A DNA stretch of 64,000 nucleotides from Vulcanimicrobiota bacterium (GTDB taxonomy: Bacteria > Vulcanimicrobiota > Vulcanimicrobiia > Vulcanimicrobiales > Vulcanimicrobiaceae): positions 36,605 to 100,604 of the forward strand of contig PMOS01000038.1 of the NCBI GenBank assembly GCA_003161435.1, read 5' to 3'. Below are positions 12,486 to 31,367 of this stretch, one piece after another; the stretch's first letter is position 1; each line of letters starts with the position of its first letter. A program made the position numbers and the translations under genes. The notes beneath the pieces were generated by a model. That model was not told the origin of the DNA. It worked only from the letters and a program-made list of their open reading frames with translations, and did not search any database.

Positions 12486-12492
12486 GTATCGT

Positions 12493-12520
12493 ATCTTACA
12501 TGTCGAATTTGACATGTCAA
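12493..12520 (-). promoter_or_regulatory. PadR-type operator overlapping a probably leaderless sigma70 promoter of the oxygenase gene
   Basis: ACATGTC-GAATTT-GACATGT inverted repeat (contains ATGT-N8-ACAT); minus-strand TTGACA-16nt-TAAGAT ends 7 nt before ATG 12485. Confidence 0.65.
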
Positions 12521-23337: not shown

Positions 23338-25542
23338 CTAACGGGACGCCGCGACCGGCGCCTCATCCGGGAACGTGGAGGCGTGCTCGTGAGGGAAGCG
23401 CTTGCGGTACTGTTCCCAGCCGCGGAAATTCCCCGACCATTCCGAAGCGTCGTCCAACGGCGTGGCAACGTGCTCGAAGGGCGACCAGTGCCCGTTCGCG
23501 CCGCCGCCGACGAGCCGTTCGTACAGCTCGATGTCCTTGGCATGATCGCGCGTCCCGTCGTGCGACAGGTACGAGACGCGCGCGCAGCGCGCGACGCTGA
23601 TATGGAGCCGATCGTCCGGCGAGAGCGCCGACTCCTCGTCGGGTAGGATCAGCGGCGTGTGCCATTCGCCGAGCCCGAGCGGACGCGGCGTGCTTCCCCG
23701 GTATGCGCGCAGCATGAGCCCTGCTATGTGGCTGATCTCGGGCTGCGCGTCCTCATGTGTGCGCTGCGTGAAGAAGTTCGCCCACTCGGTCGCGGTCAGG
23801 ATGACGGTGATCCACGCGAACGGCTCGAGGATGCGATTGACGAGCTGCTTGTGCAAGTTGATTCCGGGCTCCGTCAACCGCTCGGCGTGCCGGAGCGCAT
23901 CTTCGAGCGCACGTTTCCACTCAGTTTTGGCGAGCGCGCGCGTTGACTCGCCGATCTCCTCGCGCGCCTGCATCCCGCTCTGATTGCGTCCCCACCACAG
24001 CGGCATCGCCGGATCGCTGCGCACCGCGTCGATCATCTTGCGAATCGGAATTGCACGCGAACTGCCCGCGTTTCTCGAATTATGAACGATAAATCCGTTC
24101 GCGACGAAATTGTGGTCTGGTCCCACCACCTCTAGATCGTATGTCGGCCGCACGCCAGCGTACTCGATGGCAATGACGTCGACAAAATGGGCGATGCGTG
24201 TTCGCTTGGGAAGTGCCCGAAATTGACGCCGCACTCGCAATTCGCCCACCGCAGACCAAAACGACTCTAACGTGCGTCCATCTTCCACATGGTGCAGCAA
24301 GACAAGTTCAAGGTTTCGATGATGAAGCTCCCCATGGCACTCACTGCAAAGCGTTGTTAAATTAGAAAGGTCATAAGCTCTCGCCACATTATGCGCAACA
24401 GGATCGATGTGGTGCGTATGCAATTCTCGACCATCGCCGCAAAGTCTACACCGAAAACTGTTCGCTCGGTGCACCTTGAATGCTTGATCTGCGGTCCACC
24501 GGCCGATCATTTTGCGCTCAGGAGTTATCCCGCCGCGCCATAAGTGAGACGCTGCGCCACGCGGAACCTTGCTATGGCCGGGAAGGCCGCGGGTCTTGAG
24601 ATTGCTGTATAGTCGCCCCTTATTCCATGGCGGCTTCGTATGCGAGCGGCGCCACACTTCACTTATGTTTGTCGCTCGAATCCGGTAACGGCGAAATCGG
24701 TACTTTACCTGATCGGTCGATACGCCGAGCTGTTCCGCGATCATTGGAGCGCTCAAGCCCTTGTCACGCATCGCCTGCAACCAGGCCGGGTCGCGAAGTG
24801 CCTCGATTCCATTCACCGCCAAGCGTACTGGCCCGCGCCACGACGCTATGCCATTAGGCGAGAGCGTCAAGTCACTCGCCTCCCGCAGCGTTGACCAACC
24901 ATTGCTCGTAAGGAAACGATGGCCGGCGCTGGCCACGATCGACTTGCCGTCAGCGGTAGTCACCCGGTAGACGGGTTGGCTACCGCTAACGCAGACGTCT
25001 CGGACCTGTGTATGACCGATTAGACACGTCGACATGTCGCAGGACCGTAGATTCATGTTTGCCAGACGACTGCGGAGTGAATGGCGGCGATGCTCGCCTG
25101 AACCATTCACGTACGCAATCAAGTCGGAGCCGAGTATTTGGGTACGGCCGCGTGCGTCCATCACTCTCGGAACGCCGCGGCGCTGCGAAATCAAATTGAT
25201 CTGTGTGTAGTGCCGGTAGCCTAATGCACGTGCCGCCTCGCGTGAACCATATAAGCGATCCGCTTCAATCGCATCCGCACGACCAATCCGGCGCTTATGC
25301 GGTCGTGGTGCGGCACCAGAGTGCCACTTGTCGTGAAACTCCGCGATCGTCATCTTATACAGCTTTCCTTCGGCCTTGCCCGAAGGCAGATCAAAGTAGA
25401 GCTCCGTCTCGGCATCGAGACAAAATGCTCGATGCGTCATCATTTCGCTGTGGATGAAGCGCGGATAGCGGACTTCCATCGTGATGAGACGTACGCCCGT
25501 GGGCGAGACACTGTCCAGAAGAGTGCGCGCGAGGAACGGCAT
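23338..25542 (-). CDS. thyX: FAD-dependent thymidylate synthase ThyX precursor containing an intein
   Basis: Exteins join to RFIHSEMMTHRAF|SRNAGSSRAIP (ThyX motif); also HKQLVNRILEPF, AQPEI, ARCARVSY, HWSPFEH; spliced length 286 aa. Confidence 0.92.
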   Translation of the reverse strand: MPFLARTLLDSVSPTGVRLITMEVRYPRFIHSEMMTHRAFCLDAETELYFDLPSGKAEGKLYKMTIAEFHDKWHSGAAPRPHKRRIGRADAIEADRLYGSREAARALGYRHYTQINLISQRRGVPRVMDARGRTQILGSDLIAYVNGSGEHRRHSLRSRLANMNLRSCDMSTCLIGHTQVRDVCVSGSQPVYRVTTADGKSIVASAGHRFLTSNGWSTLREASDLTLSPNGIASWRGPVRLAVNGIEALRDPAWLQAMRDKGLSAPMIAEQLGVSTDQVKYRFRRYRIRATNISEVWRRSHTKPPWNKGRLYSNLKTRGLPGHSKVPRGAASHLWRGGITPERKMIGRWTADQAFKVHRANSFRCRLCGDGRELHTHHIDPVAHNVARAYDLSNLTTLCSECHGELHHRNLELVLLHHVEDGRTLESFWSAVGELRVRRQFRALPKRTRIAHFVDVIAIEYAGVRPTYDLEVVGPDHNFVANGFIVHNSRNAGSSRAIPIRKMIDAVRSDPAMPLWWGRNQSGMQAREEIGESTRALAKTEWKRALEDALRHAERLTEPGINLHKQLVNRILEPFAWITVILTATEWANFFTQRTHEDAQPEISHIAGLMLRAYRGSTPRPLGLGEWHTPLILPDEESALSPDDRLHISVARCARVSYLSHDGTRDHAKDIELYERLVGGGANGHWSPFEHVATPLDDASEWSGNFRGWEQYRKRFPHEHASTFPDEAPVAASR
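24079..25422 (-). mobile_element. Intein (448 aa) with HNH homing endonuclease
   Basis: Starts CLDAET, block B ASAGHRFLT, ends TYDLEVVGPDHNFVANGFIVHN followed by Ser; CRLC...HHID...NLTTLCSECH HNH; visibly lower GC than flanks. Confidence 0.93.
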
Positions 25543-26359: not shown

Positions 26360-27823
26360 ATGTGGAGCAAGGTCGTTCGGCCGACGAGCGTCGCCGAAGC
26401 GCTCGACGCGCTGGCGGCGCACGGGCCGAGCGCCCGTATCGTCGCGGGCGGTACCGACGTTCTGGTCGAGTTGCAACGCGGCGTCAAGCCGACGGCGACG
26501 CTGATCGACGTCTCGGCGCTGCGCGAGCTCAAGGACGTCCGCCAGGCCGGCGGCGGCGTTACGATCGGTGGCCTGGCAACCCACAATGACGTCTTGGCGG
26601 CACCGTTCGCGCGCGCGGCGATGCTCCCGCTCGCGCAAGCCTGCATCGAGGTCGGCGCCCCGCAGATCCGGGCTCGCGGTACGATCGCGGGGAACCTCGT
26701 CACCGCCTCACCCGCCAACGACACGATCGCTCCGCTGATCGCGCTCGACGCGGAGGTCGTCCTGGCCTCGCGGGGCGGTGAGCGAACGGTGGCGTTGCGC
26801 GATTTCTACACCGGCTTTCGCGCGACGCTGTTGCGCCCGGACGAGCTCGTGCGCGAGATCTGCTTCCGCGCGCTCGGCGGCAACCGCCGCGGGATCTTCC
26901 TCAAGCTCGGCTTGCGGCGGGCGCAGGCAATTTCCGTGATCGACATTGCGGTCGTGGTCACGCTGGACAGCGCCGGGCTCGCGCGCGACGCGCGCATCGC
27001 GCTCGGGTGCCTCGCCCCGACGGTCGTGCGCGCGGTGTCCGCCGAACGCTATCTCGAGGGCACGTCGCTCGACGAGACGACGTGCGCGCAAGCCGGGCGG
27101 ATCGCGTGCGACGATGCGGCGCCGATCGACGACGTCCGCGGCTCGGCGAACTATCGCCGTACCACGCTGGCCGGACTGATCGCGCGCGCGCTCGGGCGCA
27201 TCGCCGCGGGCCGCGAAGCCGACAGTTACCCCGAGGTACCGGTGCTGCTCCAGACGCCGGCGCGTACGAACGGCGCAACGGCCTTCGACACGCCGACCTT
27301 CGACGGGACGATCGCGACGACGATCAACGGCGTGCGCCGGACGCTGCGCGATGCGAGCTGCAAGACGTTGCTCGACGCGTTGCGCGAAGACGCGGGGCTG
27401 ACCGGCGCAAAGGAAGGCTGCGCCGAAGGCGAGTGCGGTGCGTGTACGGTGTGGCTCGACGGCGCCGCGGTGATGTCATGCCTGGTGCCCGCGTCGCAGG
27501 CGCACGGTGCGACGATCACCACGATCGAAGGGCTGGCCGACGGTGAGCGCCTGCACCCGCTCCAGCAAGCGTACATCGACTGCGGCGCGGTGCAATGCGG
27601 TTTCTGCATCCCCGGGATGATCATGGCCGGGGCCAAGCTGCTCGAGGAGCGCCGCGCGCCGTCGCTCGACGAGCACCAGGCCGCGATCAGCGGCAACCTC
27701 TGCCGCTGCACCGGCTACCGCAAGATCCTCGACGCGATGGAAGGCGCGGCGCGCGAACTGAGCGCGCACGAGCCCCTGCCCGAGACGATTCGCGCCCTTC
27801 GACGAGCTCAGGACAGGCTGTGA
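26360..27823 (+). CDS. Xanthine dehydrogenase family fused FAD-binding + 2x[2Fe-2S] subunit
   Basis: AGGTD, QIRARGTIAGNL, DDVRGSANYR, then GCAEGECGAC...C and QCGFC...CRC. Confidence 0.9.
   Translation: MWSKVVRPTSVAEALDALAAHGPSARIVAGGTDVLVELQRGVKPTATLIDVSALRELKDVRQAGGGVTIGGLATHNDVLAAPFARAAMLPLAQACIEVGAPQIRARGTIAGNLVTASPANDTIAPLIALDAEVVLASRGGERTVALRDFYTGFRATLLRPDELVREICFRALGGNRRGIFLKLGLRRAQAISVIDIAVVVTLDSAGLARDARIALGCLAPTVVRAVSAERYLEGTSLDETTCAQAGRIACDDAAPIDDVRGSANYRRTTLAGLIARALGRIAAGREADSYPEVPVLLQTPARTNGATAFDTPTFDGTIATTINGVRRTLRDASCKTLLDALREDAGLTGAKEGCAEGECGACTVWLDGAAVMSCLVPASQAHGATITTIEGLADGERLHPLQQAYIDCGAVQCGFCIPGMIMAGAKLLEERRAPSLDEHQAAISGNLCRCTGYRKILDAMEGAARELSAHEPLPETIRALRRAQDRL
27793..27817 (-). 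repeat. REP-like element inside the 3' end of the FAD/FeS subunit gene
   Basis: Reverse complement CCTGTCCTGAGCTCGTCGAAGGGCG shares 20 identical nt with 34791-34810. Confidence 0.7.
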
Positions 27824-30018: not shown

Positions 30019-30042
30019 CGGCAGCGGACCTTCGGTAATGCA

Positions 30043-30717
30043 TTAGAACTTGATTCCGGTCGTAACCGGTCCGTCTGCAAGAACCGTTCGGACGCGCGCA
30101 TGATGCTCAATCCACGACGACAGGTCCTCGGACAACATATCCGCGATGCGAAGGAGGCCGTCGTACATCTCTTTCGGTCGGTGATCGAATATCGGCTCGT
30201 GATGAGCAACGCGATTTCGAAAGGGAATGAGCGGTTCCAAATAGCCCACCAACGTCTTTCTGTGCGTATACCTTACAAAGCCAGGTCGGAGAGCCGGCCA
30301 TAACGTACGATTTATCGCCGGTCGCAACAGATAGACCCAGAAGCTCAGATACATCTCCGCGACGATCCGGTCTTCCGTAATCGGCCGCGCCGGAATCGCC
30401 CTGGCAATCCGGTTCTTGGATACTCTGATATTGTCGCGCGTCCGAGGTGTCGGGTCTAACGCGAGGAACGCCGTATCGTCGTACCACGCCGGTCCAAAGG
30501 CCAGCCGTAATTGCTCGGAAATGGCGTTCCGGAGCGCTACCTCAACCACGGATATTGGCCCGCGAAATGCGCTCGCAAGTGCCGTGTTCCACGAGTACAG
30601 TCGCATCGCGTCGCCAGCATTTCCGCTGATTGCGAGGTAGGGCGCAAATCGGGCTCCGCCAATCGCCCTCCGGATTTCAGTCTCAAGACGCAGATCAAGA
30701 CGAAAATAGCTTGACAC
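30043..30717 (-). CDS. Abi-like (Abi_2/AbiD-AbiF family) HEPN ribonuclease, putative toxin or defence protein
   Basis: RFAPYL, LYSWN, EVALRN, SFWVYL and HEPN RxxxxH motif RNRVAHHEPI; lower GC than flanks. Confidence 0.82.
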   Translation of the reverse strand: MSSYFRLDLRLETEIRRAIGGARFAPYLAISGNAGDAMRLYSWNTALASAFRGPISVVEVALRNAISEQLRLAFGPAWYDDTAFLALDPTPRTRDNIRVSKNRIARAIPARPITEDRIVAEMYLSFWVYLLRPAINRTLWPALRPGFVRYTHRKTLVGYLEPLIPFRNRVAHHEPIFDHRPKEMYDGLLRIADMLSEDLSSWIEHHARVRTVLADGPVTTGIKF

Positions 30718-30739
30718 GAATTCACACCCTGATTAAGAT
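30711..30739 (+). promoter_or_regulatory. Near-consensus sigma70 promoter divergent from the Abi gene
   Basis: TTGACA (30711-30716), 17 nt, TAAGAT (30734-30739). Confidence 0.75.
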
Positions 30740-30743
30740 GAAA

Positions 30744-30794
30744 GAGGTCCCGTAAGCCTCTGCGAAAGCACGCGTGCGGGGCTTCCTTTTATTT
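30744..30794 (+). ncRNA. Candidate Abi-associated small RNA (putative antitoxin) with built-in terminator
   Basis: Begins just after the promoter; GAGGTCCCGTA pairs with TGCGGGGCTTC using G-U pairs valid only on +; inner TGC-GAAA-GCA hairpin; ends in TTTTATTT. Confidence 0.6.
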
Positions 30795-30971
30795 ATGGGC
30801 GTGCGCTCCATTGCCTCTTGGAGAAGGTTCGCGCCGCGCCGGCTCCCGCGAGGCGCGCCCGGCGCGACCCTCCTCTCTTCCTGATGTTGCCGATCTCAGG
30901 GTGTCCCCACGGTGTGCAGCTCACGTCGTAGCGCAACCCTGGCGCCGTTGCCGCGCGTCACAACTCACGCT

Positions 30972-31355
30972 ATGCCCCTCGTTTCGATCACCGCCCACAC
31001 CTCACAATCGGCCGAGGCGCTCGCCCGTTTGGGTGACGCAGTGCACGACACGCTCGTCACGCATTGCGGCGTTCCCGCACACGACCGATTTCAACTCCGC
31101 CGCCGCGTCGATCAGGAAGAGCTCGTGTTCGACCCCTCGTATCTCGGTATCGAGCGCCGCGACCCGGTGTTCGTCGAAATTACGCTGCGCGGCGGGCGTA
31201 CGATGGCGATAAAGCAGGCGCTGTATGGCGCGATCGCGCAAGGTGCCGCCGATGCGGGGATCCGCAAGGAAGACGTGCTCATCGTGTTGCGCGAGAACGC
31301 CGAGCCCGACTGGTCGTTCGGCGACGGCATCGCGCAATACATCCCCGGGAATTGA
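30972..31355 (+). CDS. Tautomerase family protein (MSAD-like)
   Basis: N-terminal Pro (MPLVSI), VPAHDRFQ, DWSFGDGIAQY. Confidence 0.88.
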   Translation: MPLVSITAHTSQSAEALARLGDAVHDTLVTHCGVPAHDRFQLRRRVDQEELVFDPSYLGIERRDPVFVEITLRGGRTMAIKQALYGAIAQGAADAGIRKEDVLIVLRENAEPDWSFGDGIAQYIPGN

Positions 31356-31367
31356 GCGCGGCGCAGG

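Follow-up and report, generated by a model that had tools for sequence, protein, structure and literature searches.

Genomic context of the abi gene

The window, meaning the whole 64,000-nucleotide stretch of DNA that was analyzed, holds a gene for an Abi_2 HEPN protein (abi) between a xanthine dehydrogenase gene (xdh) and a tautomerase gene. A promoter on the opposite strand overlaps the abi start and leads into a predicted small structured RNA (Table 1). The GC content of abi is 0.566 compared to 0.672 for the window, and its GC3 is 0.63 compared to 0.85 in the neighboring xdh. The initial annotation described a stand-alone, lower-GC Abi_2-like gene with an intact RNRVAH motif and no adjacent protein antitoxin, and our analysis agrees on each point: the product matches Pfam Abi_2 (PF07751) with an E value of 1.1e-7 and 32.7 bits (curated cut-off 25.6), the motif lies at residues 167–172, and the flanking genes encode the xanthine dehydrogenase and the tautomerase.

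The closest relative (G401) has xdh directly followed by a cNMP-thioredoxin reductase gene, and the window has a cassette between the two. Abi, the RNA, and the tautomerase gene together make up a segment of ~1.35 Kb (window 30019–31367 versus positions 2200–2215 of locus L192) that, from this alignment, looks inserted. The tautomerase gene is not a conserved partner. No conserved protein partner was found among the 91 of 149 candidate ORFs that were scanned, and the upstream ORFs vary. The only recurrent upstream gene in these 91 ORFs is HTH_36/RepC-like and occurs in Proteobacteria, which suggests that a plasmid or ICE replication module carries the pair. This gene is co-oriented with abi and ends at the U tract of the RNA in loci L119, L120, L131, L133, L138, L145, and others. 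On a 3.1-kb E. coli plasmid, a distant homolog has a terminator-ended element upstream on the opposite strand (L218 1–140, reverse strand), which would make this small plasmid convenient for testing.

Two other features of the window were recorded. A ThyX (Thy1) gene at 23341–25542 (reverse strand) is split by an intein with an HNH endonuclease and has a lower GC content than its surroundings. A near-consensus TTGACA-16-TAAGAT promoter at 12486–12520 (reverse strand) lies under an inverted repeat with an ATG ~6 nt past the −10 box; it presumably serves a repressor-controlled gene with almost no leader, transcribed away from a PadR-like regulator.

Table 1. Features of the abi locus in the window, and RNA 3′ ends at the homologous locus of Zymomonas mobilis plasmid pZM36
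Feature	Position	Strand	Description
abi gene	30043..30717	−	Abi_2 (PF07751) HEPN protein, AbiF-like fold, predicted RNase toxin; 224 aa, GTG start
HEPN motif codons R167-N-R-V-A-H172	30202..30219	−	From homolog alignment
−35 box TTGACA of RNA promoter	30711..30716	+	Overlaps abi start codon and second codon
Putative Shine-Dalgarno-like AGGGTG	30725..30730	−	7 nt before abi GTG, within RNA promoter spacer
−10 box TAAGAT of RNA promoter	30734..30739	+	Predicted +1 near 30746
Candidate antitoxin RNA	30746..30794	+	Predicted ~49 nt; outer stem, GC/GC helix, CUC bulge, inner GAAA hairpin, U tail
Conserved core GCCUCUGC-GAAA-GCACGC	30756..30773	+	From 78-row alignment
U-rich tail	30786..30794	+	Motif stem likely doubles as terminator
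Tautomerase gene	30972..31355	+	Within ~1.35-kb insertion
pZM36 3′ end	27,672		1/6 conditions; just past motif
pZM36 3′ end	27,695		6/6 conditions; terminator loop
pZM36 3′ end	27,696		1/6 conditions
pZM36 3′ ends	27,710–27,712		5/6 conditions; U tract

Predicted structure and distribution of the abi product

Residues R167, N168, R169, A171, and H172 are invariant in all 27 aligned homologs, most of which begin at the same residue as the predicted GTG start. Loci L002, L003, and L031 carry GGGTG at an equal distance from the start. An AlphaFold2 model of the protein (pLDDT 89.6) was used for two structure searches, and the top match of both was PbAbiF bound to a noncoding RNA (PDB 8VZ6). This entry is reportedly the PbAbiF-AbiFr complex of Zilberzwige-Tal and coauthors, published in Cell in 2025. 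Foldseek gave an E value of 6e-3 and a TM score of 0.65, and VIA gave Z 12.3 and an rmsd of 3.4 over 205 aligned residues, at 14–15% identity. For an all-helical fold, a Z value alone is modest, yet 12.3 is well above the second-ranked match (6.8). As modeled, the protein has the AbiF fold, and it is predicted to be a HEPN ribonuclease toxin.

The protein had no match in sequence searches of the PDB and NCBIfam. PADLOC profiles placed PD-T4-5 first (E 6e-10), followed by AbiD (E 5e-7), and hhalign against the AbiF of a C. difficile phage was marginal (probability 2.4, E 0.019). A clade-profile search recovered 6,121 clusters (50% identity) at E ≤ 0.001 and 3,506 at E ≤ 1e-10. The closest homologs are from Vulcanimicrobiota (Candidatus Elarobacter-like), and within the phylum, 25 of 401 genomes encode a match, a count that includes the unpublished genome G359 (locus L012). 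The family is present on 546 of 72,556 plasmid records and five of 50,697 phage-collection records.

A predicted promoter and structured RNA opposite abi

The sequence TTGACA-17-TAAGAT spans 30711–30739 on the forward strand and overlaps the abi GTG. It had been described as the closest to consensus in the window; it does have the best score (10 of 12) but shares it with others, being one of nine such sites. The ~50-nt fold reported downstream was recovered and is stable on the forward strand only. Its stem has 11 bp, three of them G-U, and is capped by a GAAA loop and followed by a tail rich in U. Positions 30744–30794 fold at −23.8 kcal/mol on this strand (z −4.1, with none of 200 shuffles as good) and at −10.5 kcal/mol on the reverse (z +0.65). 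Across homologs, conservation is limited to an outer stem of ~7–8 bp and does not extend to the first three to four of the 11 pairs. A terminator scan of the window did not call the 30786–30794 tail. Of the 124 homologous loci with the core, 87 have at least three T residues no farther than 30 nt from it. There is no ATG in the three forward frames of 30740–30800, and a peptide encoded in the RNA was rejected.

A covariance model gave one match in the window (30739–30807, 44.5 bits, with the window RNA in the training set) and one in the source genome, with no tandem array. The RNA is thus a single unit, as first proposed. Three peat metatranscriptome assemblies searched at 80% likeness had no match to the locus, which is not evidence for or against transcription.

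Conservation beside abi homologs

A total of 190 homologous loci were gathered, and 162 were kept after dropping duplicates, loci with less than 130 nt upstream, and protein matches below 60 bits. The set includes L012 from the unpublished genome G359, one of 38 loci without the RNA core, and no conclusion hinges on it. The core is upstream on the strand opposite abi at 124 of the 162 loci and on the abi strand at two, with a downstream control of four in 153; the core pattern and the 78-row alignment described below were derived from the same loci they count, and related loci are not independent. Among the 38 loci without the core, a lax test with no control detected a divergent promoter together with folding at −12 kcal/mol or lower in 27, and no such promoter in 10. 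The divergent layout inferred at first from one locus is therefore widespread rather than a one-off as judged by these alignments, and the earlier reading underestimated its scale.

A strict promoter at a fixed distance was found in 75 of the 124 loci, compared to a shuffled mean of 3.6 (maximum 9). Because alphaproteobacterial −10 boxes are described as lacking the T at −7, relaxed rules were also used, and these placed the predicted start in a single 10-nt bin at 101 of 121 loci. On the abi strand, the same rules gave at most nine loci in any 10-nt bin with no peak, and this relaxed scan found no conserved promoter for abi itself. The −35 box occurs in all three abi reading frames (18, 20, and 37 of 75 loci), and therefore selection acts on the DNA and not on abi codons. 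A bidirectional −10 box was considered and is unsupported, as an A follows the −10 box in 20 of 75 loci.

An alignment was made from 78 main-type sequences, selected by eye out of 107 pattern matches. The RNAalifold consensus has an outer stem, a 3-bp helix, a CUC bulge, and an inner stem. Over the 78 rows, 94% of 1157 cells in our own 15-pair version of the structure are paired, and two-sided changes occur in 11 of the 15 pairs. Two-sided cells number 105; shuffling gives 30, and slid registers give no more than 17, although relatedness inflates such counts. G-U pairs outnumber A-C mismatches (93 versus 30), which favors the strand opposite abi as the RNA, and 53 of the 78 sequences fold better on this strand. 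Positions G24, C25, C26, C28, U29, A53, and G56 are invariant in all 78 rows, which were picked by a pattern containing the core. The stems and apical loop vary, but GCC(U/A)CU does not change and neither do the A and G opposite it, as would be typical of a protein-binding surface. Conserved structure beside homologs was the test set in advance for this locus, and promoter, RNA, and orientation are all kept, with covariation.

RNA subtypes track the protein tree and not the host (quick tree of 160 rows, including L012 of G359), which by this comparison indicates joint inheritance and not co-evolution. The window subtype corresponds to one clade of 12 in this tree (support 98). A branch of ~350-aa homologs has the same RNA core with a different outer stem and a separate terminator. 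Members of this branch (L137, L155, L183, L220, and others) are common on Agrobacterium Ti plasmids, and some have a CBS domain. Small RNA data from Agrobacterium C58 were dropped from the analysis, as no Abi gene is annotated in 20–76 kb of pTiC58.

We also searched for the RNA first. The covariance model had 21 matches in 44 genomes of the genus (G359 was searched and had none), several at loci that also trained the model. Of these matches, 15 have abi within 50 nt on the opposite strand (11 nearly whole, four partial or split), none has it on the same strand, and six have no adjacent abi. The RNA thus persists next to broken or lost toxins, which fits the decay order expected of an antitoxin. 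The orphan RNAs (L215 1501–1578, L217 1501–1578, L208 1501–1579, L243, L246, L247, and L249) mostly keep the promoter, and some retain the first abi codons. Some adjoin HigBA-like, Fic, or nuclease-like genes, labels that were read from the ORFs. Orphan RNAs are possibly free antidotes or relics. The window subtype was also found in six plasmid matches, none of them in a model organism.

RNA 3′ ends at a Zymomonas homolog

A homolog with 27% identity to the abi protein is encoded on plasmid pZM36 of Z. mobilis ZM4. The strand opposite this gene is predicted to carry a TTGACA-17-TATAAT promoter with a +1 near 27,625, a stem that stops near 27,668, and a terminator whose U tract extends to 27,712. 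For pZM36, the published term-seq data (Data Set S3 of Vera et al. 2020, PMC7566282) list 10 RNA 3′ ends; six of them belong to the divergent strand and map to the motif end, the terminator loop, and the U tract (Table 1). No gene is annotated upstream on the divergent strand in the stretch examined. The 29 pZM36 rows of the transcription start list (Data Set S1) include no start at 27,625 and none for abi. The Zymomonas 3′ ends in these listings map where a divergent RNA would end. The covariance model does not match the pZM36 RNA, which is a different sequence subtype.

Proposed mechanism

The locus has an AbiF fold match, an intact HEPN motif, a conserved opposite-strand promoter, and a covarying RNA, and these features are linked. 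On the basis of these comparative data, the locus quite probably encodes an AbiF-like toxin together with an RNA antitoxin that acts by binding the protein. Binding to protein is favored because of the fold match to PbAbiF, the invariant unpaired core, and the core shared with Rfam abiF. In this model, the back-to-back promoter likely yields a folded RNA of ~49 nt. This RNA in turn would likely bind the toxin and hold it inactive, making the two an AbiF-type RNA toxin-antitoxin pair. The near-consensus promoter would produce RNA in excess, and the invariant unpaired core, a CUC bulge between two short helices, would face the HEPN dimer. Abi has no conserved promoter of its own and would be weakly made. 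Polymerase at the RNA promoter may also damp abi transcription head-on, since the abi start codon and ribosome site sit inside that promoter; we rate the chance of this additional step at slightly below even. Where same-strand type III systems use terminator read-through, separate transcription running head-on probably sets the RNA:toxin ratio here. The RNase would be freed when a phage shuts off host transcription or when a phage protein displaces the RNA, leading to cell arrest. On mobile DNA, the same release logic would give addiction.

The initial annotation had left open whether the RNA acts on the protein or as antisense to the abi leader. Antisense pairing in trans is not borne out, with a duplex energy of −23.1 compared to a shuffled mean of −26.7 and 162 of 200 shuffled leaders pairing as well; what stands is a possible overlap in cis. 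The promoter and a short transcript could accordingly silence abi by interference or by pairing with the mRNA leader, with an RNA that does not bind protein. The geometry of the loci is in keeping with this. The abi start is at or upstream of the −35 box and no more than 40 nt away in 58 of 75 loci, and 37 of 57 loci show an SD-like word ahead of it by a lax and uncontrolled pattern. In one class of loci, the SD abuts the first base of the RNA, and therefore the abi mRNA must traverse the RNA gene head-on and overlap with it. Many alphaproteobacterial loci also have a co-oriented upstream gene that stops at the U tract. However, neither interference nor pairing in cis requires a kept fold or invariant unpaired bases, and both are kept. 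Pairing with the leader outside the overlap is no better than for shuffled sequences, and both characterized AbiF relatives are reported to bind their RNA. We therefore consider silencing in cis alone unlikely.

A protein-RNA complex could instead be a resting particle, with the RNA as a bound cofactor or sensor through which a phage component is sensed and the RNase activated. The apical loop ranges from a few to more than 20 nt across homologs around a fixed core, the 3′ bulge of abiF is missing, and sequence upstream of lactococcal AbiF is reported to be necessary for its defense. In the window subtype, however, the loop stays the same GAAA tetraloop across unrelated genomes, which leaves no variable guide. 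There is no array, only one copy each in the window and genome, and the orphan RNAs fit an antitoxin better. A sensing role is very unlikely.

It is hardly credible that the hairpin is a mere terminator, structural DNA insulating the inserted cassette, or the leader of a downstream gene. In favor of such readings, U residues follow the stem, and xdh and the tautomerase gene share its strand. Against them, a conserved promoter of its own precedes the hairpin, whose internal core is invariant; neighboring genes vary widely (91 ORFs scanned), and other subtypes have a separate terminator after the motif.

Returning to the proposed toxin and its candidate RNA antitoxin, a broader reading joins these observations. 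A large branch of Abi_2 HEPN proteins (3,506 clusters, with the layout checked in 162 loci) may be an undescribed class of divergent RNA toxin-antitoxin systems that includes PD-T4-5 and CBS-fused forms. Each would have an uncatalogued single-unit RNA antitoxin transcribed from a promoter over the toxin start, with the ratio set head-on, the toxin blocked by an RNA surface unlike that of AbiF, and orphan RNAs serving as free antidotes. We put this forward tentatively, as conceivable and somewhat short of probable. If true, the 224-aa protein with its 49-nt RNA would serve as a minimal model of the stage preceding Cas13. So small a HEPN-RNA pair lends itself to studying how RNA antitoxins became Cas13 guides. 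The predicted RNA provides a candidate antitoxin for many Abi-family genes now listed without a partner, close relatives of the validated anti-phage PD-T4-5 among them. Such genes cloned without ~130 nt of upstream sequence are predicted to be toxic, and the RNA should rescue. The RNA also represents a family absent from Rfam, and the layout departs from the same-strand, terminator-controlled rule of type III systems.

Comparison with known systems

The Rfam abiF model (RF03085), proposed as a check in the initial annotation, had no match in the window, the genome, or 20 plus nine homologous loci, whereas the positive control phiC2 matched with 37.6 bits. The two RNAs are nevertheless alike, with an outer stem, then AAGC pairing, then CUCU. 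The abiF consensus reads CCCGCC-AAGCCUCUCA..GCUCAAAUC-GGCGGG, and its counterpart in the window is CCCGU-AAGCCUCUGC..UGCGGG. By inspection, both have the 8-nt AAGCCUCU just inside the outer stem, and simple arithmetic puts a chance 8-mer match between the consensus and the window RNA at ~2%. The window RNA differs from Rfam abiF in its additional inner helix and in the absence of the CAAAUC 3′ bulge. According to a review, the inhibitory bases of PbAbiFr lie in a single-stranded bulge, presumably the counterpart of this CAAAUC bulge.

The pair most resembles PbAbiF-AbiFr, with the same modeled fold over 205 of 224 residues, an R-x4-H motif in both proteins, and, as far as the available accounts describe it (PMC12737573, PMC13064643, bioRxiv 2025.04.15.648962), a small stem-bulge-stem RNA adjoining the 5′ end of the gene. 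PbAbiF is larger (297 residues compared to 224). The window RNA runs opposite to the toxin gene from a separate promoter that covers the toxin start, a layout that PbAbiFr and the other RNAs modeled in that work may share. In the C. difficile prophage AbiF-RCd22 system, as outlined by Saunier et al. (bioRxiv 10.1101/2025.04.15.648962), the toxin is likewise an Abi_2 protein with RNxxAH. RCd22 is described there as two motifs on the same strand, co-transcribed, with a terminator that sets the ratio, compared to a single divergent unit here, and our covariance model had no match in RCd22.

PD-T4-5 was described by Vassallo et al. 2022 (PMC9519451) as a toxin-antitoxin-like single plasmid gene with abortive defense and a distant relationship to AbiF/D. 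It was cloned with its predicted promoter region, and no RNA was found in its description. PD-T4-5 is ~300 aa and has 27% identity to the abi protein over 162 aa. Against PADLOC PDLC04038, the abi protein scored 36.8 bits over profile positions 34–206 of 309, compared to 178 bits at full length for close members, and by this measure, it is not a full-length strong PD-T4-5 match. Two PD-T4-5-like loci were found in 251 genomes searched (E 2e-52 and 3e-52). Both have TTGACA-17-TAGTAT on the opposite strand, followed by a stem with a CCACUG..AAGC/CAAGC core and a separate terminator. This divergent promoter, structured RNA, and terminator are unannotated in both (L230 1355–1480 and L231 1355–1480, reverse strand).

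Other systems are more distant. The type III systems ToxIN, AbiQ, CptIN, and TenpIN are similar in that a small RNA holds a predicted RNase, but they are described as having tandem-repeat RNAs that are co-transcribed upstream and cut by a toxin of another structure. DS-11 (CBS plus HEPN; DefensePredictor, PMC13092281) was compared by its published description with the ~350-aa branch, which also includes CBS fusions and has a related divergent RNA. The DS-11 model had no match to the abi protein, which has no CBS domain.

That AbiF is held by a noncoding RNA is already a published principle, and Zilberzwige-Tal et al. 2025 are described as having built covariance models of diverse AbiF RNAs. 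We found no literature description of a divergent Abi_2 RNA, though this work and the supplement of Weinberg 2017 may cover it. Most of the homologous loci examined share the opposite-strand layout, unlike the same-strand arrangement of the best-studied relatives, and Zilberzwige-Tal et al. 2025 may already include it. The pair is without the same-strand and Rfam features of described AbiF systems, and our best reading is that it belongs to the AbiF protein family and would work like AbiF-AbiFr.
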